Below the pieces are notes generated by a model. That model made no database searches and had not been told where the DNA came from. It saw only the letters and a list, made by a program, of their open reading frames with translations. Shown here in pieces: positions 6,178-28,857 of a stretch of DNA of 64,000 nt. The stretch is from assembly GCA_019058365.1 (NCBI GenBank), contig JAHPZE010000003.1, forward strand, positions 160,001 to 224,000. The letters run 5' to 3'. Source of the stretch: Promethearchaeota archaeon. GTDB lineage: Archaea > Asgardarchaeota > Lokiarchaeia > Sigyniarchaeales > SOKP01. The position numbers were made by a program, and so were the translations under genes. Positions within the stretch are counted from its first letter, which is position 1. Each line of letters starts with the position of its first letter.

Positions 6178-7197
6178 ATGGGTCATCGTAAGAAACACGC
6201 TCCAAGACATGGGTCGCTAGCATTTCTTCCTAGAAAGAGAGCAACGCAAATAAAAGGTCGAGTAAGACATTGGTTAGATAGCTCAGATGAGATTAATTTT
6301 CTTGGTTTTGCTGGATTTAAAGCGGGAATGACTCATATAACCTATATAGAGGATCAAAGAAATAGTCCTTATTATGGAAAAGAATTGATGAAGCCAGTAA
6401 CAGTAATTGAAGTCCCTCCATTAATCCTGATAGGGATAAGAGTCTATAATGAAGATGAATATGGTAAGTATATTGTTGGAGAGCTATATACTCATGAATT
6501 TAATAATTATTTATCTAGGAAAATAAATCTTCCAAATTTAGTTAATTATGATCCTAAAGTGTCTAAAAAAGAAATTCTAAAAGTTTTAAATGACAAAAGT
6601 GAAATTCGAGGCATTTTTCAAACGCAACCATACCACACATCATTACCCAGAAAAAAACCAGATATTATTGAAGTAAAAATTAATTCAATAAACCAATCTA
6701 AGGATGAATTTGATTTCGCTTATAAAAGTTTGGGTAAAGAAATAAGAGCACGAGACGTTTTAGCTGAGGGGGGGTTAGTAGATGTAGTTAGCATTACTAA
6801 AGGAAAAGGTTTCCAAGGTCCTGTTAAAAGATTCGGAATTAAAATTCTAACTCGCAAAAATAATAAAATAAAGAGAGCTGTTGCATGTATTGGTCCGTGG
6901 CATCCCGCTAGAGTTCTCTATACAGTTCCACGTGCTGGACAATTAGGATTTCACCAAAGAACAGAATACCATAAAAGAATTATGGTAATTGGCGAAAATG
7001 AGGAAGAAATTAACCCAAAAGGGGGTTTTATAAGATATGGGAAAATTCGAGGAGATTACATATTGATTTTAGGGTCTATTCCTGGATCTAAAAAAAGATT
7101 AATTAGATTAAGAAAAACTATCAGACCATTAAGATCTTTTGTTGTAAATACTCCTGAAATTACATTTATTAGCCGAGAGAGTCAACAAAGAAGATAA
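6178..7197 (+). CDS. rpl3: 50S ribosomal protein L3 (uL3)
   Basis: PRHGSLAFLPRKRA, GFKAGMTH, TKGKGFQGPVKRFG motifs. Confidence 0.98.
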   Translation: MGHRKKHAPRHGSLAFLPRKRATQIKGRVRHWLDSSDEINFLGFAGFKAGMTHITYIEDQRNSPYYGKELMKPVTVIEVPPLILIGIRVYNEDEYGKYIVGELYTHEFNNYLSRKINLPNLVNYDPKVSKKEILKVLNDKSEIRGIFQTQPYHTSLPRKKPDIIEVKINSINQSKDEFDFAYKSLGKEIRARDVLAEGGLVDVVSITKGKGFQGPVKRFGIKILTRKNNKIKRAVACIGPWHPARVLYTVPRAGQLGFHQRTEYHKRIMVIGENEEEINPKGGFIRYGKIRGDYILILGSIPGSKKRLIRLRKTIRPLRSFVVNTPEITFISRESQQRR

Positions 7198-7219
7198 TTT
7201 AATACAATCTGGTGATATT

Positions 7220-8008
7220 GTGGATAAAGTCAATGTTTATAATTTGGATGGCAAGAAAAAAGGGCTTATTGATAAACCAAAAATATTTGATGTAAAACCA
7301 AGAATTGATCTTATTCAGATTGTAAGTGCATCCGCTCAAAGTAAAAATAAACAGGTTCAAGGAAGAGATAAGAGAGCAGGGTTAAGAAATACTGCTGAAA
7401 GTTGGGGGACAGGACACGGGATGTCTAGAGCTCCTAGAATCCAAGGTAGTGGGTTTATTACAGCAAGGCAGGTGGGACGAGTCCCTTTTGCTAAGGGGGG
7501 GCGAAGGACACATCCAATAAAAACAGAAAAAAAGATTAAGAAAAAAATTAACAAACAGATCAATAAACAATCAATAATTTCTGCAATTTCTGCATCTGGT
7601 GAAAAAACTTGGATTCAAAAAGGGGGATTTATTATTGAAAATGTACCTGAAATCCCTTTAGTTGTCGATGATAAAATCCAAACAATAAAAAAAACCAAAA
7701 AAATTTATTCAATATTATGTAATTTGGGATTAAAAGAGGATTTAATTAAAATTAAGAAAAGCAGAAAGATTAGAGCAGGAAAAGGAAAGTCAAGAGGTCG
7801 AAAGTATAAAAAAAAGAAGGGAATTTTAATCGTAATTAAAGAGGATTATGGAATTATTAAATCCTCAAGAAATATTCCTGGAACAAGTGTTATTAGAGTG
7901 GAAAATTTATCAATTAAAACATTAACACCCGGTGGCATATCTGGTAGATTGATTCTTTGGACTCAATCTGCTTTCAATGAATTAAATAATTATGAGGTGC
8001 TAATTTAG
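7220..8008 (+). CDS. rpl4: 50S ribosomal protein L4 (uL4)
   Basis: AESWGTGHGMSRAPR, RAGKGKSRGRKY motifs; follows rpl3. Confidence 0.97.
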   Translation: MDKVNVYNLDGKKKGLIDKPKIFDVKPRIDLIQIVSASAQSKNKQVQGRDKRAGLRNTAESWGTGHGMSRAPRIQGSGFITARQVGRVPFAKGGRRTHPIKTEKKIKKKINKQINKQSIISAISASGEKTWIQKGGFIIENVPEIPLVVDDKIQTIKKTKKIYSILCNLGLKEDLIKIKKSRKIRAGKGKSRGRKYKKKKGILIVIKEDYGIIKSSRNIPGTSVIRVENLSIKTLTPGGISGRLILWTQSAFNELNNYEVLI

Positions 8009-8272
8009 ATGGAAGAATTCTATAAAATTATTAAAAGACCGTTAATTACTGAAAAAACTTTTGATTTAATCGAAAAGGAGAATAAACTGGTCTTTATAGT
8101 AAATAGACAAGCAAATAAAAATCAAATTAAAAGAGCTATTGAAAAATTACACAATGTAAAAGTAAAAAAAGTTAATACTATGATTACTCCAAAAGGAGAG
8201 AAAAAAGCTTTTATAAAGCTACACCCCGAATATTCCGCCCAAGACATTGCAATTGATTTAGGTATTTTTTAG
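8009..8272 (+). CDS. rpl23: 50S ribosomal protein L23 (uL23)
   Basis: [24 protein letters not shown] motifs. Confidence 0.97.
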
Positions 8273-9391
8273 ATAATAATTACTTTTAAATTCTTGGCAA
8301 TTAAATTTTTGTATGTCTTTTGGATTGATTATTTTAATATTTTCCACTAATTTTATTGATTTAGCTTTTATTAGTTTCTTATATCCCAATTCATTTAATA
8401 TTAGAATATAAATAATATATTTTGGATAATATTTTTTAAGGATTCTTAGAATATATTTAGAATCTATATTTTCTAATATAATAAACAAATAACTGTGTTC
8501 AATAAACATTAGGTTATCACCCAGTCTTACATATTCAATTTGATTATTTAATAGATTTTGTTCAAATTTCTTATTGATTTCTGGTAAAGACAGTGGTATA
8601 GAATTAATTTTAGGAAAAAATAGATCTAAAAAATCATTTAAAAAATAAAAGGTGTCTTTTATTTCTAATCTCCAAAGATAATTAAAAATTGTCCTAATTT
8701 TAATATCTTGTTTCTTAATTAAGTTACTTTGAAAAAAGTCATTAATGCTATTCTCAAGATTAATTGTATTTTCAACATTTTCACATTCTTCGACAAAGTA
8801 AAAGGATATTTTAATATCATCATTATTATCTGTTTTAAAATTAATAATTAAAACTCCTTTACTCCCTAAATTCTTTATTAGATTTAAGAAGTCTAATATG
8901 AATGATTTTTTTTTTTTAATAAAATCTAAATTAATAAGAAAAAAACTAAAAACCTTTGAATTATTGTCATTTGAAATTTTTATTGATTCAGATAATTTGG
9001 TGACAAAAGAATTAGAATTTATTTCTTGAGAGATATTAGATAAAAATTTGGTTTCTAAATCTTTCTCTTTTAAAAATTTAGCAGAATTATGAGTTTCAAA
9101 TATGTTTTGTTGGATAAAATTAAAGGATTTGATTATTCTTTCTCTTTTAGAATCTTCAAAGTTTAAAAATAATAATTTTTCACAATTTTTACGAGTATCT
9201 ATTTGGATAGTGTAATATTGAATTAGTCTTTTTCTTAGAAATTCATTTAAAACGGATAAAATTGATTTAGAATTTTTATAAACAAGTATAGCGAATGCAA
9301 TGATTTTATCATTTTTTCTTATACTCTTATAGTAAATAAGGTGATTTTCAATCAAATAGTTGAATAGTTTATACTTTCCCTTTTTAACCAT
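8258..9391 (-). CDS. Hypothetical protein
   Basis: 377-aa open frame, no recognised motif. Confidence 0.6.
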
Positions 9392-9644: not shown

Positions 9645-10919
9645 TTGGTGGTAGAATTGTTAAATTCTATTAAGGAGTTTTTGTTAAGTTTAAATCCAGA
9701 TATTATAATTCAAGCACCATCAAGAATAAATTTAATAAATCCCTTAGATGCTGTTGAAGGAGATTTTTGGATGCCGTCAGTAGCGATCAATGGGGAAAAG
9801 AACCCACTTTCAGTATTCTTTTATATTAAAAATATTGTCAATAAGAGTAAATTAAAAATATATAATTTAAAAATTGAACGTAAAAAATATTCTTTCGAAC
9901 TAATTAGAGATGAAAAATTGTTAAAGAGTGAAGATGAAATCAGGCGAAAAATTGAGGGGCAAGACAAGTTAATTTATGCTAGTATCGCTAGATTCTTTAG
10001 AATGAGTTCTTATTTTGAAGAAATGTTTAAAAAAACTAACTTCGAAATTGGGTTAATTTCAACAATTCCTTTACAAAGTGGTTTAGGTGGTAGCGCTGCT
10101 ATAATAATTGCCATTCTTTATGGATTTGCAAATTATTTCAATATTTTTAATAACTTAAAATATGTGAAGAAAAATGAATTTCCAATAAATAAATATATAA
10201 TAGCAGAAATGGCGACTAAAATTGAGGATGAAGATTTAAAAATTACATCGGGTTATGGAGACCGATATGTAATAAGCAGGGGGGGATTGAGTTTTTGTTC
10301 CTATTATGGTAAGCTTTCCCATAAAGAAATTTCAAAAGAACCTTTAGCAATCTATGATAGAATCGATAAAGTATACAATTTAAATGATATTCCTATAATT
10401 GTTTGTTATTCGGGAGTACTTCATGAAAGTGGGGAAATCCATAGGAAGTTAAGGAAACTCTATTTAGAAAGCAATCCTGAGATTATAAAAAGCTATAAAG
10501 AGTTAGGAAAAATAGCTTGGAAGTCTAGATTTGCTATAATGTGTCGTAACTGGAAGGAGCTAGGAAAATATTTTAAGCAAAACACTATAATTATGAACAG
10601 GATAATGAAAGACGCGGGTTTTGAATATGGGATTGGACTAGCAAATAATATTTTAATCGAAATAATAGAAGAACATCCCGAGGTATATGCTGCTAAATTA
10701 ACTGGTGCTGGGGGTGGAGGCTCTGTTTTTGCATTGGTTAACGCAAATAAATTAGAAACCATCTTAAATTATTGGAAAGACAGACTAAATGAGATAATTA
10801 TAAATAAAGAAAAATTTTCTTCAAAATTTCCTTCATATCCATTAGAAATAACCAATAATTTGAAAAAGGCTCAATTTTTCCGAATTAAAATTGATAAAGA
10901 TGGAGTGAAAAAGTTATAA
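9645..10919 (+). CDS. GHMP-family kinase (sugar kinase-like)
   Basis: APSRINL, PLQSGLGGSAA, KLTGAGGGG motifs. Confidence 0.9.
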   Translation: MVVELLNSIKEFLLSLNPDIIIQAPSRINLINPLDAVEGDFWMPSVAINGEKNPLSVFFYIKNIVNKSKLKIYNLKIERKKYSFELIRDEKLLKSEDEIRRKIEGQDKLIYASIARFFRMSSYFEEMFKKTNFEIGLISTIPLQSGLGGSAAIIIAILYGFANYFNIFNNLKYVKKNEFPINKYIIAEMATKIEDEDLKITSGYGDRYVISRGGLSFCSYYGKLSHKEISKEPLAIYDRIDKVYNLNDIPIIVCYSGVLHESGEIHRKLRKLYLESNPEIIKSYKELGKIAWKSRFAIMCRNWKELGKYFKQNTIIMNRIMKDAGFEYGIGLANNILIEIIEEHPEVYAAKLTGAGGGGSVFALVNANKLETILNYWKDRLNEIIINKEKFSSKFPSYPLEITNNLKKAQFFRIKIDKDGVKKL

Positions 10920-20724: not shown

Positions 20725-21554
20725 ATGAAACCATCAAATAAAAAGACATTTTATCTCACGGTAATCTCTATATCTGTTATAATTGGTATTATTTCAGTTA
20801 TCTTATTGTATATATTTAATTGGAATGCAATAGTTCAGTAATATCTTATCCATGAGGGCGCTTTAGGCGTAGTATTGATCCTTTCGAGTAGAATAATTAT
20901 TTTATCTGGAATGGTCACATATACCTTTTATAATAGTTTCAGCAAGAACAACAATATTTTTCGGATTTACCGTTTTTATTCGGGATTTTCTTCTTATTTC
21001 TTGTATTCGGAAAGGCTTTTGATTTATTTGTGGATTTCATTTATTTTCAATTGAATGAGACTCTTGTTTTAAATACCCTTAAGATTCGATACTTCATTAT
21101 GATCTTTGACTTCTTACCAATGATATTTCTTAGTACTGAAATGATTCTATTTTCCTTTTCATTGCGATCAAGATTAAACAGACTTACCAACGAGGAAATG
21201 CGCAATAAGATTAGCTGTCGATTGATTTTCAGCATTTTATTTATTGAGTTCATAGTCGGAATATTAGCACCAAGTATTCGAACCTTAACCATATATTATA
21301 CTGTTATAATCATTCCTTCATCAATTACAATATTCTGGCTCTTTCGATTTGCTTATAAAAGCAAACATCTCTCTCCAGTCAACACGTTAATCTTGACAAT
21401 AGGATTTGGAGCTTATTTAATTTCTCAAATAGTCCTCTCTTTAGCACAGTTTATTATCGGAGAATCTGATACTTTCTTGATTTTTCCTAAATCAATAGAT
21501 TTGGTTATTTTCCATGTTATCTTTCTAGGTTTTTACCGGGAATCTAAGTATTAA
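20725..21554 (+). pseudogene. Disrupted multi-pass membrane protein gene
   Basis: ATG 20725 frame (MKPSNKKTFYLTVISI...) hits TAA at 20839, hydrophobic reading continues, then shifts frame near 20934 (TAG) into QEQQYFSDLPFLFGIFF, which is in frame with ORF 21030-21554. Confidence 0.7.
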
Positions 21555-21615: not shown

Positions 21616-22842
21616 ATGTTTAAATTAAAAAGAAACGGATCAAAATCATATTTTAATATAAATTATGTTTCATTTGTATTTATATATTTAACCTATTCAT
21701 CTATATTTGTTTTTCTTAATAAATTTCTTCCAATTCTCTTTTTTGATGTATTAGATATTAATAGAATTATTCTTGCATTAATGCAGTTTCTTGCTTATTC
21801 CATATTATTATTACGTCCTGTTTTAGCTACAATAACAGATAACTTCAGAATTAAGGGTTATCAACGGAAATATTATATTATTCTTTCTGGATATTTATTA
21901 GCGTTATTCTACATTCTTATTGGGTTTAACTTCAATAATATTTTAATGTTTGGAGTCCTTTTATGTTTGATTTATATTTCAAGTATGATGCTAGATGTTT
22001 GTTCAAAATCCTTAGTTATTGATATTTCACCAACTAACGTAATAAAAAAAAGAAACCTCTTTTTTGTGTCTTTAGGCGAAGCTTTAGGAAATTTTTTTCC
22101 TTTCTTTTTATTCTTTCTTCTTATCAATGATGTTCATTCAATAAATTCTTGGGAAACTATGATTTACTGTAGCTTTCTTTTATTAATACCTTTATTAAGT
22201 ATTTTGCCATTTATTATTGAGAGAAGGCAATGGAATCCTCAAGTCATCGAAAAGCCCGAAAGGATTGAAATTTCTGAAGAAATTAGTCTAAATTCTAATC
22301 ATAAACCTAAATTAACATTCATTTTACTCTGCATTTTTATCTTTTTTGCATTTAGCGATGTAATTTTCGCATATCCTTTTTTTCCTTATCTAATACACAA
22401 ATTTGGACTCAATAACTTTAATATATTTAATCTCTTTTTAAGCTTTTATTTTCTCATAAGTATAGTGAGTAGTGCAATTGGTGGATTTCTTGTTAAAAAA
22501 GCAAAACCTAAAATTATTATATTCATTCTAATCCCAATAATCGGAATTATTTATTTGATGTATATAATTGTCCCTTTTACATATTTTACTATATTATATT
22601 TTTTAGGATGCTCTTTAGGGACAATTGCTAACTTTAACATTACAGTATATATTATGAAGTTTAAACAAGGAGATAAATCAGTCTATTTTCACCTTATAGC
22701 ATCCTTCAGACATCTAGCATGCTTCATTTTTATTCCATTAGGAACTCTACTTTCCAGTTTTATAATTACTGAATATCTTATTATCATTGGTGCTATATTG
22801 TTGAATATCTCAATCCTTCCTTTAATTTTTGTAAAACTCTAA
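21616..22842 (+). CDS. MFS transporter (AmpG/BT1-like), candidate RiPP exporter
   Basis: About 12 TM segments; RPVLATITDNFRIKGYQRKYY motif-A region; convergent with ycaO. Confidence 0.85.
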   Translation: MFKLKRNGSKSYFNINYVSFVFIYLTYSSIFVFLNKFLPILFFDVLDINRIILALMQFLAYSILLLRPVLATITDNFRIKGYQRKYYIILSGYLLALFYILIGFNFNNILMFGVLLCLIYISSMMLDVCSKSLVIDISPTNVIKKRNLFFVSLGEALGNFFPFFLFFLLINDVHSINSWETMIYCSFLLLIPLLSILPFIIERRQWNPQVIEKPERIEISEEISLNSNHKPKLTFILLCIFIFFAFSDVIFAYPFFPYLIHKFGLNNFNIFNLFLSFYFLISIVSSAIGGFLVKKAKPKIIIFILIPIIGIIYLMYIIVPFTYFTILYFLGCSLGTIANFNITVYIMKFKQGDKSVYFHLIASFRHLACFIFIPLGTLLSSFIITEYLIIIGAILLNISILPLIFVKL

Positions 22843-22879
22843 AAAAATTAAAAGAAATATTTTTATGATAATTATAATT

Positions 22880-24649
22880 TCAACAAAAGAAATCTTGGAT
22901 CTTATGATCATAGTGATTTTTAATAACCTTGAAAAGATCCGGATATTTAGATGTAATTTTTTTCTCGATAAATTCAAGTAAACCATATCTACATGTTCGC
23001 ACATGCCTGCAATTATTACATTCTTGATGACAATTTGGAATCAATTTTTCTAGCCTTGTTAAGAGTTTTTTTGAAAAATCTTTAAATGGTTCATTTTTAA
23101 ACGTAATTGGGATCTCATTGGATTTCCTTAATTTCCAAAATTTTTTAAAGAGATCAGAATTGCCGTAAGCTAAACAAAGCAAAGAAAAAAACTCCCATGT
23201 AGATATTCGTCTTAGAGCAAGTGTATCAATTCCTAGAAATGTTGAAAGGTTATAATTTTTTATCACTACATAAATCAACGATTCAGATCTAGATAATATT
23301 TCTAAGTCAATTGATTGGATATCTCTTATATTTGTTATGAGTATTTTCTTTAGCTTAAATACTTGATCTGGCATGTATAAGAGATAATCAAGTATGCAAC
23401 ATTCGAGTTCTGGAACAAATAATCTTATTGTAGGAAAACCAAGCCAATTATAGTCTCTCATATAAATATACCAACCATTTTTTCTACAAAATTCTGTAAG
23501 ATTTTTTAGTTCAACAAGAAAATTTTTATCACTATAATCCCATTTCTTAAAACTTCCAAAATTTACAATTAGAAATTCTAATTTTTTTGAAGGATACATT
23601 TGCTGGACTTCAAATCTATATTTGAAAAAACCTTCTAATGGGAAATAGTTGTTTATTTCGGGAAAAACTTTATACAATTTTGAAATACTTAATAAATAGC
23701 GTTTAGTATATCTTAATCTAATTTTATGAAATGGAAAGACTTGTAATTTTTCGGTAAAACATCGCTCAATTGCGAAATTAATGGAAGTAGCTGCGGATAT
23801 ATGAAATTCCAGTTTATCGATCTGTTTATGGTGAAAAACTACACCGACTACAGGGATTCCTTTGTTTAAGCTCAAATCTTTTACAATAATATCAATATTC
23901 TCTTTATTAAATTTCTGTATAATTTCTTTATTATTATTTGAAATATATTCTGATGGTATTGTAGGGCATTTTATATTATCAGAAATTACTTTTATTATAG
24001 TATAAGTTTCGAAAATCTCACATAAAGCTTGCACAAAAGCTTCTTCGTATGAATTTCCCGAGGCACATCCTTTAGTTGAGGATAAGAAAATAGTATCAAG
24101 AAAAACTTCTTCATTTGTATAAACATTCTTAAATGGGAGATACATCTTATTGTATCCATCCCAATTAGGTAAGTATGGATTGTTTTTTCGTGTTTTTTTA
24201 AAAATTCTCTCATTTAATTCTTTATCTTTCTCGGATATCTCTGTATTAAATATAGGACAAATCTTTGGTTTTAATAGGTTTCGTGAAAACCACCACCCAA
24301 TTTGAATTCTTTCTATTAATTCAGCATATCCACTAGCAACACTAGCCTCTAAAGTCGTACCTTTCCCAAAGGAATTATATAGAATAAAATCATTACTAAC
24401 CTCTAAAGCATGACTGAGATTTGTACTAGTGATCCATATATCTTCGATTGAACTTGTATAAGAAGAATGCTCAACAAATTTATTTCTTTTTAAGAAAAAT
24501 TTTAATGATTTTGTTATATTCTGAATGGTTTCTTGAAATGAAACGGCTTTATAACCATTCACTTTTTCAGAATTTCTAAAACCATTAAACTTTGGATAAA
24601 AAATATGTGTTCTATCCTGTTTAAAATAGGATTTATCAATTATTGTCAT
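22880..24649 (-). CDS. ycaO: YcaO-family ATP-dependent peptide backbone-modifying enzyme with C-terminal Cys cluster
   Basis: GKGTTLEASVASGYAELIER, STKGCASGNSYEEAFVQALCEIFE, DLSLNKGIPVVGV, AIERCFTE, LGFPTIRLFVP; C-terminal CxxxCxxCxxxxxC. Confidence 0.92.
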   Translation of the reverse strand: MTIIDKSYFKQDRTHIFYPKFNGFRNSEKVNGYKAVSFQETIQNITKSLKFFLKRNKFVEHSSYTSSIEDIWITSTNLSHALEVSNDFILYNSFGKGTTLEASVASGYAELIERIQIGWWFSRNLLKPKICPIFNTEISEKDKELNERIFKKTRKNNPYLPNWDGYNKMYLPFKNVYTNEEVFLDTIFLSSTKGCASGNSYEEAFVQALCEIFETYTIIKVISDNIKCPTIPSEYISNNNKEIIQKFNKENIDIIVKDLSLNKGIPVVGVVFHHKQIDKLEFHISAATSINFAIERCFTEKLQVFPFHKIRLRYTKRYLLSISKLYKVFPEINNYFPLEGFFKYRFEVQQMYPSKKLEFLIVNFGSFKKWDYSDKNFLVELKNLTEFCRKNGWYIYMRDYNWLGFPTIRLFVPELECCILDYLLYMPDQVFKLKKILITNIRDIQSIDLEILSRSESLIYVVIKNYNLSTFLGIDTLALRRISTWEFFSLLCLAYGNSDLFKKFWKLRKSNEIPITFKNEPFKDFSKKLLTRLEKLIPNCHQECNNCRHVRTCRYGLLEFIEKKITSKYPDLFKVIKNHYDHKIQDFFC

Positions 24650-24814
24650 ATTCTTATTACATGTTTATTTATTTCTATAAAATTTCTATAAGTCAAACAA
24701 ATTTCTAATTTCAATTTAAACTCCTAAAAACCTAAAAAATTTGAAAAATGATTTCAGTTTTTCAAAATAGTAGTTAAAAAATAAATATAAAACAGTTTTA
24801 GGACACGAGAAGTT

Positions 24815-24840
24815 AGAAAAGAAGAAATAAAAAGAAGAAA
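24815..24840 (-). terminator. Oligo-U/pyrimidine tract after precursor ORF
   Basis: Minus strand TTTCTTCTTTTTATTTCTTCTTTTCT about 30 nt after the stop codon. Confidence 0.45.
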
Positions 24841-24869
24841 TATAGTAATTTAATTTGATAGTGATTTAC

Positions 24870-25010
24870 TTAATATGGAAATCCAGTTCTGCCATGAGGG
24901 ACTTGAAAGCGTGGGCATCCCTTACCGCCATGAGGGACTTGAAAGCGTGGGCATCCCTTACCGCCATGAGGAATCGTAAATAAATCAAATATCATCTCAT
25001 TGCTATTCAT
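24870..25010 (-). CDS. Putative multi-core RiPP precursor peptide (46 aa; not in ORF track)
   Basis: MNSNEMIFDLFTIPHGGKGCPRFQVPHGGKGCPRFQVPHGRTGFPY; co-oriented and directly upstream of ycaO; repeat period is a multiple of 3; TATA-like box upstream, U-tract downstream. Confidence 0.8.
   Translation of the reverse strand: MNSNEMIFDLFTIPHGGKGCPRFQVPHGGKGCPRFQVPHGRTGFPY
24891..24971. repeat. Perfect 36-bp tandem repeat (2.25 copies)
   Basis: GCCATGAGGGACTTGAAAGCGTGGGCATCCCTTACC at 24891 and 24927, then GCCATGAGG at 24963. Confidence 0.98.
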
Positions 25011-25079
25011 CTTTATTAAACCCTAATTATTAAATAATGAATTAATTAGTCATTATTCAATAACTTATGTTATCTCATA

Positions 25080-25087
25080 TATTTAAA
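25080..25087 (-). promoter_or_regulatory. Candidate TATA box for precursor gene
   Basis: TTTAAATA on minus strand, preceded by an A-rich BRE-like stretch, 70 bp upstream of the ATG. Confidence 0.4.
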
Positions 25088-25224
25088 GTTCTAATATTTT
25101 CCTACACCTAGAGACAGGTAATAAAAAATAAAAGAAAGTAAAGTAAATCCTTAAATTGAAATAGAATTAAGTTAAATTATTTAAAAGAAAATCAACTTTT
25201 TTTTCTTAAATATAACGTTCTCTT

Positions 25225-28200
25225 TTGCAGATAATGGATTTCATAAATGAATTTGAACATCTAAAAAGGCTTTCATTAGGTAAAGAGCTCGAAGATATTG
25301 ATATAATTTTTCAAAAGTATATAGATTCTATATATAACTATTTAAAGTTAGAACCTGTTCATAAAAATGTGAGAATACACCTCTTGGAAAAAGAAAATTT
25401 ATTAAAAGAAGAAAAGGAAATTAATCCCTTTGATATTGGGGTTGCTCGATTCATCCAAGACAAAATCTTACATTTAGAGATCTCTCAAAAATATACTGAA
25501 TTTTTACCGTATATCTTATTAAGAGAAGCATATTATATTTTTCTTCCGAAAAGAAGTGTATCTGTTGAGATAGCAGTAAATTCATTTATAGAAAAGGATT
25601 TACAAGATTTAGATGAGATTGGCAAGTGGCAATCAATGATTCGAGAATGCTTTATCCATGATGATTCTGTGAGTAAAATTATGACGGCTTTTGAAAAATT
25701 ACATCTGGAAGTAGCAGACTTATGTAAAATATTTTTTAATATGGTTAGGAATAATATTTCCCTAATTGATAAAGACATGGATGATTTAGTTACTCGACTT
25801 CAAGAAGAAATAATGTCTAAACTCTCAAAAATTTTCTATAACGATGAAATGGTTGAGACTTTGAGAGTCCTCATCGAAATATTTTATAGAGTTAAACAAT
25901 ACACCGCATTATTGAATTATCAGGAACATTTTAAAATCTATAAAGAAAAAAATATAATAAAGAGTGATTTGAGTTTAAGGAAATTTACATCAAATATGAA
26001 ATTAATAAGCAATAATTCTCTACTTAGCCCTAGTTATCTAACCCGGTGGAATACAATCGATGTATTTGTTTGTTTCTGTTATATGAGATTCCATCCTAAA
26101 ATAACTGTTTCTCAGATAAATAGGATTTTAAAAACCTTTCCTTTTTTTCTAGAACCCAGAACTGCTTACTCTTCTGGCTTTTGTCCAGATATTTTTGGAT
26201 TTTTCATTTTACCAAGAGTCTACTTTTTAGATTTTATAGGCATATTAAACAGAATGAAAAATAATAATTATTTGACTAAATTATCTGTTTATAGGCTTAA
26301 CTATTTCTTTAATTTTGCTAACTTAAATTTTCTTAGGAGTTTTCATAAATATGAATCTCTTATTAATCCCTTTCACAATCAATATGATATTAAATTTGAG
26401 ATAAATTATTTCTTAAACTATGGTGAAAATTTTCATCAGAAAGAATTAGATCTGCTTGATTTTTTGATTTTAGATAGAATTAGGTTCTTTTCTACAAATT
26501 CATTTGGATTTGAAAGAAGAGCTAATACTTTAACAGACCTAAAAAAAAGTATTATTGAAGAAGTTACATATCAAAGAAATCTTATTATCGATATTAAAGA
26601 ACTTGCCAAAAAAATTTCTGAAAAACCAAAAATTAAATCCAATTTTCTTAAATTTTTAGATACCAACCAAACTTATGGACTATTTTATATTAAAAATGTC
26701 TTAGATTCACTACTAACAATATTGATCTTTATTGAAATATTTTTCATAAAAAATCCGAATATTAAAAACACATTTAATTTTAAAGAATGGATTAAGAAGC
26801 ATGGATTATCTAATCTAATTGAGAGTAATCTATTTTTAAAAAAAAAATTTATAAAAACACTGATTTTTAATGACTTCGTACCGCTTTATTTTAATTCTAA
26901 AGAAAAATTCAAGGAGAAATTAAACGAATACAAGATATACAATCAATTCATAGATATATGTTTCAATCTTAAAACATTCAATTTAAAAGTCATAAAACAG
27001 ATTGTTGAAAATCCGGAAACTTTGAAAAAAGTTTATGAAAAAAAAGAGTTAAAACTAAAAGAGATATATGAAATAGTGAAACTAACAGATATTACAAGTA
27101 AAGAAGTTGAAGAAAGAATAGCAGGATTCCTTAAAAATAAACCACCCATAATAGAACCGTGGTTACTTAACACTCTTGGATATTTATATACGAATATAGA
27201 AGATTTAGTTTTTATAATTAAAAATGATGAAGAAACCTTGAAAAAACTTAATTTAATTAAAAAGTTTTTTCCCTTTTTTATAATCTTTACTTCAACAGAT
27301 TTGATCTCTAATGAGGATATAATTTTTACTGAAGTCAGTTTCCCCAACTTTCATTACCGTGATGCATATCAATTTTATTCCATATTATATAATACATTTA
27401 AGGAAAATCTACTAATCGCTAAGAGATATTTATCTAGTGGATTTACTCCTGTATTTTCTTTAAAATCCTTTTATAATTTCGAGACACGTCAATTCTTTTA
27501 TACTAAAGATTTATTTAAGCAATTCTTTCATTACATACAAAAAACTTTAGGAGAAAATTTTGAGTTTATTCCAATTAAAGATAATAAAATCTTATCAAAA
27601 TTACTCTCAAAAGAAAATAATATGTTTAATTTGGTAAAAACAATAAAAAACAGACAATCAAGAGATAAAATTGATTATAAAATTAAAAACTTAAAAAAAT
27701 TAATAGAATTTAATCTCAATCTTGATAAATCATTAAAAGATTTAGAAAAATATAAAGAAATAAAGCAAGAAACCTTTTTTAAAAAATATGTAAACTCTAT
27801 CCGATTCATTCCCTCTTTTCAACATTTTGGATTTGATCAGTTTTTTTTGTATATTTTCCCGATAGATATGAGTAAAATCGATTTAAAACTTCTATTTCTC
27901 AATAATTTTCAACAAATAAAATGTTCCTCATCAATTGATGCTCCCAATCCATTATTAATTAAATATATCATGCCTAATAACACTCCCAATGATAAATATC
28001 TCCATTGGTTGGTGAAATCAATGAAAGTAATTCAAGAATACTCTTTATTCTCTGTTAAAAAAATTTATAGTTTATTACATTTTGATTACAATCTTGCTGA
28101 AAATGGTTGGGAATATGATGCTGATAAATTTAAAAGCCACTTGGAAAATATTCTCTTTAAGTCGGGTTATGAGATTGAAATTCCTAAAGTGAGAGAATTT

Positions 28201-28857
28201 AATATTTCAAAACAATTAACCTCTTCTTATTATGATCCAAAATCTGAGGAATATGAAACTCTCACCAAAATCTATGGTCGGAAATCCTTGGATATGAAAT
28301 CTTATTTAGGAACAAGAAATTATAAAGTTGTAAACTCAATTAAAAACTTATTAAACAAAAAATTAATATTTCCATATTTATCCCTAAAGAATTTAGGATT
28401 TCAAGATAAACTTCTTATAATTCTTCCCAATATTAAATCCAAATCTAAAGACATTTTATTACAAATATTCAGTTACTTTAATTATGGTTTTATTTATGAA
28501 ATTGAAGGAGAATTTTACATTTATGGATTTGATAAGGAAGTAAAATTTGAGGAAGGATTAATGATAAAACTGTATCTTCCAAAATCCAAGTTTAGCATGT
28601 TTCATAAATTTCTTGAAGTCTTTAATTTATTATTTGAATATTTAGAAATCCCCCATTATTTATTTTTATATGATTTAGTTAACAGTAAGGAGTTAATTAA
28701 ATCGGTTTATGGAAATATTCAGTTCCTAAAACAATATAATCCTTTAAAGAATCTAAAGTGGAATAAAAAGGACAAAATTTGGTTGAATCATAAGGTATTT
28801 ACTCAGAAATTTGAACCTATATATCCAGATTTACTTTATAATAAAGAAGATAATTAG
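25225..28857 (+). CDS. Very large hypothetical protein with repeated Lrp/AsnC-like modules (start may be ATG 25234)
   Basis: 1210 aa; recurring P..xxLG-hydrophobic-strand junctions (PSFQHFGFDQFFLYI, PYLSLKNLGFQDKLLII, PWLLNTLGY). Confidence 0.55.
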   Translation: MQIMDFINEFEHLKRLSLGKELEDIDIIFQKYIDSIYNYLKLEPVHKNVRIHLLEKENLLKEEKEINPFDIGVARFIQDKILHLEISQKYTEFLPYILLREAYYIFLPKRSVSVEIAVNSFIEKDLQDLDEIGKWQSMIRECFIHDDSVSKIMTAFEKLHLEVADLCKIFFNMVRNNISLIDKDMDDLVTRLQEEIMSKLSKIFYNDEMVETLRVLIEIFYRVKQYTALLNYQEHFKIYKEKNIIKSDLSLRKFTSNMKLISNNSLLSPSYLTRWNTIDVFVCFCYMRFHPKITVSQINRILKTFPFFLEPRTAYSSGFCPDIFGFFILPRVYFLDFIGILNRMKNNNYLTKLSVYRLNYFFNFANLNFLRSFHKYESLINPFHNQYDIKFEINYFLNYGENFHQKELDLLDFLILDRIRFFSTNSFGFERRANTLTDLKKSIIEEVTYQRNLIIDIKELAKKISEKPKIKSNFLKFLDTNQTYGLFYIKNVLDSLLTILIFIEIFFIKNPNIKNTFNFKEWIKKHGLSNLIESNLFLKKKFIKTLIFNDFVPLYFNSKEKFKEKLNEYKIYNQFIDICFNLKTFNLKVIKQIVENPETLKKVYEKKELKLKEIYEIVKLTDITSKEVEERIAGFLKNKPPIIEPWLLNTLGYLYTNIEDLVFIIKNDEETLKKLNLIKKFFPFFIIFTSTDLISNEDIIFTEVSFPNFHYRDAYQFYSILYNTFKENLLIAKRYLSSGFTPVFSLKSFYNFETRQFFYTKDLFKQFFHYIQKTLGENFEFIPIKDNKILSKLLSKENNMFNLVKTIKNRQSRDKIDYKIKNLKKLIEFNLNLDKSLKDLEKYKEIKQETFFKKYVNSIRFIPSFQHFGFDQFFLYIFPIDMSKIDLKLLFLNNFQQIKCSSSIDAPNPLLIKYIMPNNTPNDKYLHWLVKSMKVIQEYSLFSVKKIYSLLHFDYNLAENGWEYDADKFKSHLENILFKSGYEIEIPKVREFNISKQLTSSYYDPKSEEYETLTKIYGRKSLDMKSYLGTRNYKVVNSIKNLLNKKLIFPYLSLKNLGFQDKLLIILPNIKSKSKDILLQIFSYFNYGFIYEIEGEFYIYGFDKEVKFEEGLMIKLYLPKSKFSMFHKFLEVFNLLFEYLEIPHYLFLYDLVNSKELIKSVYGNIQFLKQYNPLKNLKWNKKDKIWLNHKVFTQKFEPIYPDLLYNKEDN

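Follow-up and report, generated by a model that had tools for sequence, protein, structure and literature searches.

A multi-unit peptide gene, a giant Lrp-like regulator and an optional YcaO enzyme in a Lokiarchaeia-type Asgard archaeon: a candidate peptide-signaling cassette

RESULTS

The locus and its genes

We analyzed a 64,000-nucleotide stretch of a Promethearchaeota archaeon genome (GenBank assembly GCA_019058365.1, contig JAHPZE010000003.1, positions 160,001 to 224,000; hereafter the window, with its first letter as position 1), in which a gene for a YcaO enzyme lies beside a gene for a short repeat peptide. The locus comprises genes for a 408-aa major facilitator superfamily (MFS) transporter (21616..22842, plus strand), a 589-aa YcaO protein (22880..24649, minus strand) and a 46-aa precursor-like peptide (24870..25010, minus strand), and, head-to-head with the last of these, a gene for a 1,210-aa putative receptor/regulator (25225..28857, plus strand). 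The original prediction, made from the window alone, had described a self-contained pathway of peptide, YcaO and exporter for a ribosomally synthesized and posttranslationally modified peptide (RiPP); the placement and relative orientation that it gave for these three genes are correct, as are the gaps of 37 nt between the MFS and YcaO stop codons and of 220 nt between the peptide open reading frame (ORF) and the co-oriented YcaO gene downstream. Comparison with related genomes indicates, however, that the peptide and the transporter belong to the cassette of the regulator and that YcaO is a rare, optional add-on.

The transporter was assigned by library domain matches (PF07690, E value of 2e-7, slightly below the cut-off; BT1, above the cut-off), and the flanking genes include Trm5 and a TFIIB region. 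The closest YcaO homologues carry the labels Promethearchaeota or Lokiarchaeota. Neither TfuA nor McrA was matched anywhere in the genome, which is 100% complete, while the search controls were detected, so that the lack of tfuA and mcr genes near ycaO, remarked on earlier, extends to the whole genome. An E1/ThiF-like partner and a flavin dehydrogenase are likewise missing from the locus, as had been claimed; three ThiF genes and two SagB-like genes above the cut-off all lie on other contigs. The SagB-type matches (C48:66080-66574 and C16:237480-237923) may serve azoline oxidation in trans or may be ordinary nitroreductases. No protease was noticed in the window on inspection by eye, no dedicated search having been made. 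The description of YcaO as stand-alone holds in that no partner gene is present at the locus, but the protein itself is extended at its C terminus by 170 residues, among them four conserved Cys.

The peptide gene and its units

The 46-aa peptide consists of a 13-residue leader and three units of the form PHG..G.P, with R-x-x-x linkers between them. At the DNA level, the three 36-nt repeat units show identities of 100, 83 and 61%, and the G+C content of the gene is 45% versus 27% across the window. The unit that is triplicated here is defined by comparison with relatives that have a single unit (in L146, for example, an ORF of 9 codons that encodes PHGGEVCP behind its Met), and the limits of the core units were drawn from these relatives: unit 1 spans residues 14 to 21 (24948..24971), the identical unit 2 spans residues 26 to 33 (24912..24935), and the divergent unit 3 spans residues 38 to 46 (24873..24899), all on the minus strand. 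Units 1 and 2 contain Cys; unit 3 contains Thr and no Cys. The sister-species comparison indicates that the ORF is a real gene, since the sister allele (G005/L001) keeps its frame, start, stop and length at 70% amino acid identity, its repeats are altered in step, with silent changes at Cys (TGC/TGT) and Arg (CGC/AGA), and a two-unit version of the peptide (P0095/L066) was gene-called independently; the proposal of a multi-unit, precursor-like repeat peptide is thereby borne out. The alternative minus-strand frame is closed in the sister species, where all three units contain Cys.

A profile search returned three further three-unit peptides, each of 49 aa, and the multi-unit family shares the linker pattern P-[RQK]-[FIV]-x-[AVT]-P-H. 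One of the three, in L302, lies at the corresponding chromosomal position together with a regulator and an MFS gene, and no YcaO is present in the locus. Both YcaO-linked multi-unit alleles have a Cys before the last Pro of the unit; the three other multi-unit relatives, of which one is shown to lack YcaO at its locus, do not. Several candidate patterns were rejected. Across 114 cassette regions, the multi-unit, leader-bearing form had appeared to be YcaO specific, a notion that fell with the three 49-aa relatives; F-x-(I/V)-P-H-G was dropped as a cleavage motif, being not retained in sister units 2 and 3; and pattern matches in genome G270 are due to chance, as are probably those in G197 and G266. 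Tandem-unit peptides had no match in viral contigs.

Transcription signals

A TATA-like promoter element of the peptide gene (25080..25094, minus strand) lies approximately 77 nt before the ATG, with the box TTTAAATA at 25087-25080, and a U-rich tract (24815..24842, minus strand) follows the stop codon as a probable terminator. Both features had been proposed for the gene and both were found; the box is kept in the sister species, and other family peptide ORFs have TATA-like boxes and U-rich tracts of their own. A 14-bp inverted repeat in the 5' region (25027..25063), weakly kept in the sister species, is a candidate operator or hairpin. A look-alike of the peptide promoter element, matching in 12 of 14 bases (24714..24727, minus strand), is placed approximately 72 nt before the ycaO ATG and is probably the promoter of ycaO itself. 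Since the 14-nt element precedes both genes at a similar distance, the arrangement suggests separate yet co-regulated transcripts. A sigma-70 promoter scan gave results at chance level, the sigma-70 model being unsuited to archaea.

A regulator cassette spread across the family

Of the 134 genomes of the family, 117 have a homologue of the 1,210-aa regulator, and none was found in approximately 265 further genomes of the phylum; two candidates were scored per genome, so that copy numbers are lower bounds. A short Gly/Pro-rich ORF lies head-to-head upstream of the regulator on the divergent strand at 55 of 102 loci, compared to 7 of 102 on the opposite strand, 1.6 ± 1.2 in shuffles and 2.3% of the intergenic strands in the genome of the window, for a criterion that was tuned on the same data and for loci that are kin. 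The peptides come in two forms: (i) leaderless 8- to 16-mers, with an MFS gene alongside in 26 of 39 cases, and (ii) 36- to 44-mers with a hydrophobic, signal-like front, often in tandem, with an MFS gene in 1 of 15. Among the 20 closest orthologues of the window MFS, 17 adjoin a regulator and 2 adjoin a YcaO gene, so that the view of a self-contained three-gene YcaO pathway is not upheld: the peptide family and the transporter travel with the regulator. Most loci have no gene in the slot that separates peptide and MFS; this slot holds a B12 radical SAM gene in at least five loci (L115, L120, L128, L133 and L067), ycaO in the window, and both in L008. At L008 and L053, a different, non-PHG short ORF stands head-to-head with a homologue of the 1,210-aa gene. 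By these comparisons the linkage of regulator, peptide and MFS is established, and the precursor design and the transporter appear older than the link to YcaO, because the MFS orthologues track the regulator and the three-unit cassette of L302 has no YcaO.

The two peptide forms also bear on whether the ORF encodes an exported product at all. A short ORF followed by a hairpin or U tract ahead of downstream genes, together with leaderless forms that carry no export signal, would suit a cis-acting leader (attenuator) or an intracellular small inhibitor of the regulator. We consider this very unlikely, as the other form has a signal-like hydrophobic front, occurs in tandem arrays and has no co-oriented gene to control, the MFS gene is often convergent rather than downstream, and leaderless forms and MFS co-occur.

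Other members of the family show variations on the cassette. The same genome holds a second copy 20 to 26 kb before the window (C35:134249-139952; L067:6250-11953), with a 1,216-aa regulator, a TTG-start 36-aa signal-type peptide and a B12 radical SAM gene, behind which lies a frameshifted extra peptide copy (~C35:140115-140230). L008:9468-9575 and 9744-9863 encode tandem paralogous signal-type peptides of 35 and 39 aa in a two-enzyme cassette with both YcaO and B12 radical SAM, and in L100, L161 and L164 three to four signal-type peptide genes, each different and with a GGP-like tail, are lined up upstream of the regulators. At L302:5176-5209, and also in L303 and L304, the regulator gene beside the YcaO-free three-unit peptide is frameshifted right behind the peptidase-like head (179 + 997 aa); found in three separate assemblies, the frameshift may mark a broken allele or the splitting off of the head domain.

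The regulator is predicted to combine a gluzincin-like N-terminal domain with repeated Lrp/AsnC-like modules. In the structure model (predicted local distance difference test [pLDDT] score of 73), residues 1 to 186 match gluzincin peptidases (aminopeptidase N and thermolysin; Z of 7 to 8), residues 196 to 754 match the Lrp-derived NirDL (Z of 12.9, root mean square deviation of 5.2, 291 residues aligned), and the C-terminal module matches Lrp proteins (PH0061, Z of 5.9; a halophilic Lrp, Z of 5.8). The HExxH motif is not present in the head, where LLREAY takes its place, and both zinc-binding His residues are missing in 32 of 32 aligned members. A protein atlas gave a lead of 0.81 to an AsnC/MarR helix-turn-helix (HTH) cluster, while Foldseek returned no match below an E value of 0.001, and PDB sequence and Pfam searches returned none. 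No tetratricopeptide repeat (TPR) family was found among 32 members, the model consisting of alpha/beta modules and the peptidase-like head, although a TPR-type fold may go unmatched. A dead peptidase fold joined to transcription factor modules could, on this model, be the design of a cytoplasmic peptide sensor.

The YcaO enzyme

The 589-aa protein is a YcaO by domain match (PF02624, E value of 2e-38) and by fold (Foldseek E value of 5e-20 to E. coli YcaO, 4Q86; model pLDDT of 84). It is the sole copy in the genome; within the genus, 2 of 54 genomes have a YcaO, and within the phylum, 27 of 400 do. Its ratio of nonsynonymous to synonymous substitution (dN/dS) of 0.24, similar to that of its neighbors, indicates purifying selection. 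We take the ATP/Mg-binding residues to be K61, S71, E75, E78, N187, E191, Q195, E199, E202, R203, R286 and E290 of the E. coli enzyme, of which R203 presumably contacts ATP; all are retained in the window YcaO save R203, which is replaced by T215. This position is Arg in 198 of 202 motif matches, with Thr confined to this lineage, and the branch is long (0.86 in a quick tree, from which we claim no donor or order of events). A catalytically dead YcaO that only binds the peptide or is decaying would fit the substitution, but hardly the selection on the gene or the retention of the other ATP site residues. In addition, K193, at the N181-equivalent position, is Lys in 2 of 202 sequences, the same two that carry Thr, and is plausible as a charge compensation for T215. 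We therefore regard a dead enzyme as most improbable.

The C-terminal extension carries the motif C540, C544, C547 and C553 (22991..23032, minus strand), which is shared by YcaOs of the Asgard clade and by many bacterial YcaOs of 600 aa, and a protein atlas search gave no usable match for this tail. The C terminus is not Pro rich, with no Pro in the last 12 residues; a Pro-rich C terminus is a trait of azoline formers (PMC8442711). There is no N-terminal E1 domain, and all family model scores are under their cut-offs (TIGR03604, 66 of 219 bits; TIGR03266, 60 of 365; NF040716, 92 of 700). The peptide-adjacent YcaOs (window/L001/L066, L008, L053 and L050/L223/L228) represent four lineages of one subclade in the quick tree (Shimodaira-Hasegawa-like approximate likelihood ratio test support of 91). 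Neighbors of the nearest bacterial YcaOs are either a short ORF, a beta-barrel and a C39/ABC exporter or a SPASM gene, an MFS gene and LuxI/LuxR. Bacterial relatives in RiPP-type clusters and short peptide genes beside clade YcaOs in four lineages agree with the proposal of an active-looking YcaO of RiPP type. The PHG repeats expected in short ORFs upstream of YcaO homologues were, however, found in no distant homologue, and most Asgard clade YcaOs are without a PHG peptide nearby, so that we rejected these repeats as an Asgard YcaO marker.

Whether YcaO acts on the peptide is a separate question. The L302 peptide without YcaO, the many clade YcaOs with no peptide nearby, the promoter-like element of ycaO behind the U tract, and the best structural match, E. 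coli YcaO, a protein modifier that needs no TfuA (PMC13063428), would all suit a cassette that works unmodified, with YcaO as a passenger or as a regulated target that acts on a protein or another peptide. We consider this unlikely: the patchy occurrence is unlike that of a housekeeping modifier, McrA is absent, the NF040716 score is far from its cut-off, and in three genus-level lineages the distance from YcaO to the regulator is no more than approximately 4 kb, while in a fourth YcaO adjoins a family-type peptide.

Further genes were seen around YcaO relatives. A 95- to 107-aa acidic helical protein, a possible YcaO partner, adjoins YcaO in three other lineages (L008:4385-4699, L053:1602-1925, L050:8042-8329 and L228:1488-1775); the L008 and L053 copies are homologous, and no homologue was found in the genome of the window. 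In a different clade, genome G049 encodes three 845- to 877-aa YcaOs (L020:1847-4384 and 6335-8872; L021:4852-7485) by helicase-like genes, perhaps on a mobile element. A bacterial relative at L214:1-8863 is clustered with LuxI/LuxR, an acyl carrier-like ORF, a SPASM radical SAM gene, an MFS gene and an S9 peptidase. Another Asgard YcaO branch (L011, L047, L048 and L052, the last copy split) stands amid ftsZ, glycosyltransferase, PLP enzyme and ThiI-like genes, with no peptide nearby.

Allele replacement between sister species

The locus is 95 to 99% identical between the window and the sister species except for a block at 24850..27900, where identity falls to 64 to 78%; this block holds the peptide gene, the spacer and the first ~900 codons of the regulator. 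Four-fold degenerate sites have diverged within it at 15 of 22, 11 of 34 and 18 of 40 positions, versus 7 of 167 in ycaO. The pattern indicates an old, pherotype-like allele swap that carried the peptide and the regulator front as one block and left ycaO and MFS; peptide and regulator front move together because the whole block has diverged, silent sites included. In another genus, Mantel tests showed peptide similarity to follow regulator residues 1 to 185 (rho of 0.34, P of 0.04) and 441 to 780 (rho of 0.38, P of 0.02), weak and uncorrected signals, and not to track the C-terminal part of the regulator or the MFS. The joint divergence and the Mantel signal would fit cognate peptide/regulator pairs.

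These data also bear on the purpose of the peptide. In a conventional RiPP cluster, the modified units would be the end product, which the MFS would export as an antagonist or metal binder, and the giant protein would be a pathway regulator sensing something else. The adjacency of precursor, enzyme and exporter, the product clusters of related bacterial YcaOs, the yield gained from multi-unit precursors, and the presence of His and Cys would all be in keeping with this. Most cassettes, however, are without any tailoring enzyme, the units are 8 to 10 residues long, Gly rich and different between close species along with the regulator front, and neither His nor Cys is conserved across the family, which makes an end product unlikely. 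As for the metal binding or antagonism originally suggested, we found nothing favoring either over signaling.

Elsewhere in the window, at 20725-21554, a membrane protein gene lies in fragments (38, 59 and 174 aa), as it does in the sister species.

DISCUSSION

The best reading of the locus, which we hold with about even confidence, is a peptide signal/receptor cassette with a YcaO-tailored signal. The locus would be one copy of a family-wide, Lokiarchaeia-type cassette, in which a tiny Gly/Pro-rich peptide gene stands opposite a giant Lrp-like regulator and an MFS transporter accompanies the leaderless peptide forms; in the window, the unit of approximately 8 residues is present three times in the peptide gene. 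The precursor would be made from its own promoter, YcaO would use ATP/Mg to phosphorylate a backbone amide in each unit and then replace the oxygen, a housekeeping protease would cleave at the R-x-x-x linkers, and the MFS would carry the units across the membrane. A unit would then bind the cognate regulator via the peptidase-like head and/or the Lrp ligand domains, and the bound regulator would alter transcription, its own cassette included. We infer the translation, cleavage, transport, DNA binding and signaling role of the cassette from sequence. As regards the separate steps, the modification of the peptide by YcaO appears reasonably probable, and the binding of the unit to the regulator only slightly better than an even bet.

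The product of YcaO can be envisaged in several ways: (i) an ammonia-derived amidine (O to NH, -0.98 Da), by analogy to ItfB of Bacteroides thetaiotaomicron, in which YcaO and an Fe-S-recognition domain are fused and which forms a backbone amidine from NH4Cl (PMC11002830, PMC10352776), which is the leading candidate, though somewhat short of an even chance; (ii) a Cys-derived thiazoline (-18 Da), a less likely product that stays in contention because Cys precedes the last Pro in the YcaO-linked multi-unit alleles; (iii) an N-terminal macroamidine, which we regard as improbable; and (iv) a thioamide from free sulfide, improbable to the same degree. The first two are placed ahead because of the lack of TfuA, an E1 partner and a Pro-rich tail, the four-Cys domain and the bacterial neighbors in ItfB-like clusters. 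The mass test originally proposed (-18 and +16 Da) leaves out the shift of -0.98 Da, that of the likeliest product of an ItfB-like enzyme.

Several observations weigh against a tailored signal with a cognate receptor: (i) the joint divergence of peptide and regulator could also be expected from physical linkage and recombination alone; (ii) ycaO is 97.6% identical between the sister species while the peptide has changed, which suggests that the enzyme is permissive or acts on something else; (iii) the equivalent of R203 is Thr here and Arg in 81 of 82 other matches; (iv) in approximately 9 of 13 Asgard clade YcaO lineages, neither a peptide nor a regulator lies near YcaO; (v) about half of the regulator copies show no peptide by the filter used; (vi) Cys is present too in single-unit peptides of YcaO-less cassettes (L146 and L085); (vii) no protease candidate was identified; and (viii) the likeness to ItfB is one of architecture and neighbors, not of sequence comparison.

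The literature contains broad statements that Asgard genomes harbor RiPP clusters (PMC12144867, PMC11051675); our incomplete search of it turned up neither a characterized RiPP from Asgard archaea nor any comparable archaeal pair of peptide and regulator. The regulator/peptide/MFS module of Loki-type Asgard archaea is apparently both widespread and undescribed. What the present analysis newly adds is the family of multi-unit precursors, the swap of alleles between sister species and the view of YcaO as an add-on that the cassette can do without. More broadly, and more tentatively, Loki-type Asgard archaea may use peptides for cell-to-cell signaling, with a dead metallopeptidase/Lrp array as receptor, recombining strain-specific pherotypes, multi-copy precursors, and swappable YcaO or B12 radical SAM tailoring that marks the signal, the window being the YcaO-modified multi-unit case. 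If so, processed peptide signals encoded in multiple copies are in use among the prokaryotes most closely related to eukaryotes. The question can be tested without culturing, with one enzyme and the 46-mer, and the two natural allele pairs offer a test of cross-specificity. The YcaO itself is of interest for its natural active-site variation, in which Thr replaces Arg and a Lys is new, and for its uncharacterized four-Cys domain. Gene neighborhoods suggest that regulator, peptide and MFS should be studied together as the basic unit, and YcaO as a tailoring enzyme that is optional to it.

In comparison with known systems, the locus has the general mark of a RiPP cluster, a short precursor gene adjoining a tailoring enzyme. 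It resembles the ItfB system in having a partner-free YcaO with an added domain (Fe-S recognizing in ItfB, the four-Cys tail here), in that its nearest bacterial matches lie in an ItfB-type cluster, and in a precursor that likewise ends in an aromatic residue. It differs in having no GG leader (the leader here being of 13 residues), no C39 exporter and no SPASM enzyme, with a multi-unit precursor, an MFS transporter and a giant regulator instead. In streptamidine, bottromycin and klebsazolicin (PMC8442711), the product is similarly short and the chemistry is that of YcaO, bottromycin YcaOs being also partner-free; our locus, however, lacks an E1-like partner, a hydrolase and a dehydrogenase, its YcaO has no Pro-rich C terminus, which AmiD has, and the first residue of its unit would be Pro, whose amine is secondary. 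Cyanobactins of the PatE type (PMC8442711) share the leader, the several cores with conserved linkers and the YcaO enzyme, but here there is no fused E1/RRE domain, PatA/PatG-type proteases were not seen, the leader has only 13 residues, and the cores are copies of free-standing mini-genes.

The E. coli YcaO, which forms the uL16 thioamide (PMC13063428), is the best fold match, of similar length and TfuA independent, but the identity is 19%, the NF040716 cut-off is not reached, and the window enzyme is patchy and has the four-Cys tail. The methanogen YcaO/TfuA system, which makes thioglycine in McrA, differs in that the TIGR03266 score is below its cut-off and the genome encodes neither McrA nor TfuA. 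As in LAP/TOMM clusters, Cys or Thr is present in the core, while the E1/ThiF partner and the Pro-rich C terminus are absent. On the features tested, the locus thus falls outside the LAP/TOMM, thioamitide, MCR, uL16-type and cyanobactin groups.

On the regulatory side, the model of the regulator shares repeated winged-helix and RAM-like modules with Lrp/AsnC (FFRP) proteins and the NirDL fold, but it places several of them in a single chain of 1,200 aa, after a peptidase-like head, and the sequence has no Pfam match. The Rgg/SHP and other RRNPP systems of Bacillota (PMC11002830) offer a close parallel in layout, in that the genes for a cytoplasmic regulator and a tiny peptide stand head-to-head, with a short C-terminal active part, allele diversity and adjacent tailoring enzymes; shp/rgg-controlled radical SAM RiPP clusters exist in Bacillota (PMC11002830). 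The differences are that the regulator here has 1,200 aa, with a predicted dead gluzincin-like head and Lrp/AsnC-like modules rather than HTH plus TPR, that leaderless forms come with an MFS transporter, and that the substrate of the enzyme would be the neighboring signal-like peptide. By analogy, the cassette may work like an Rgg/SHP unit joined to a RiPP enzyme.

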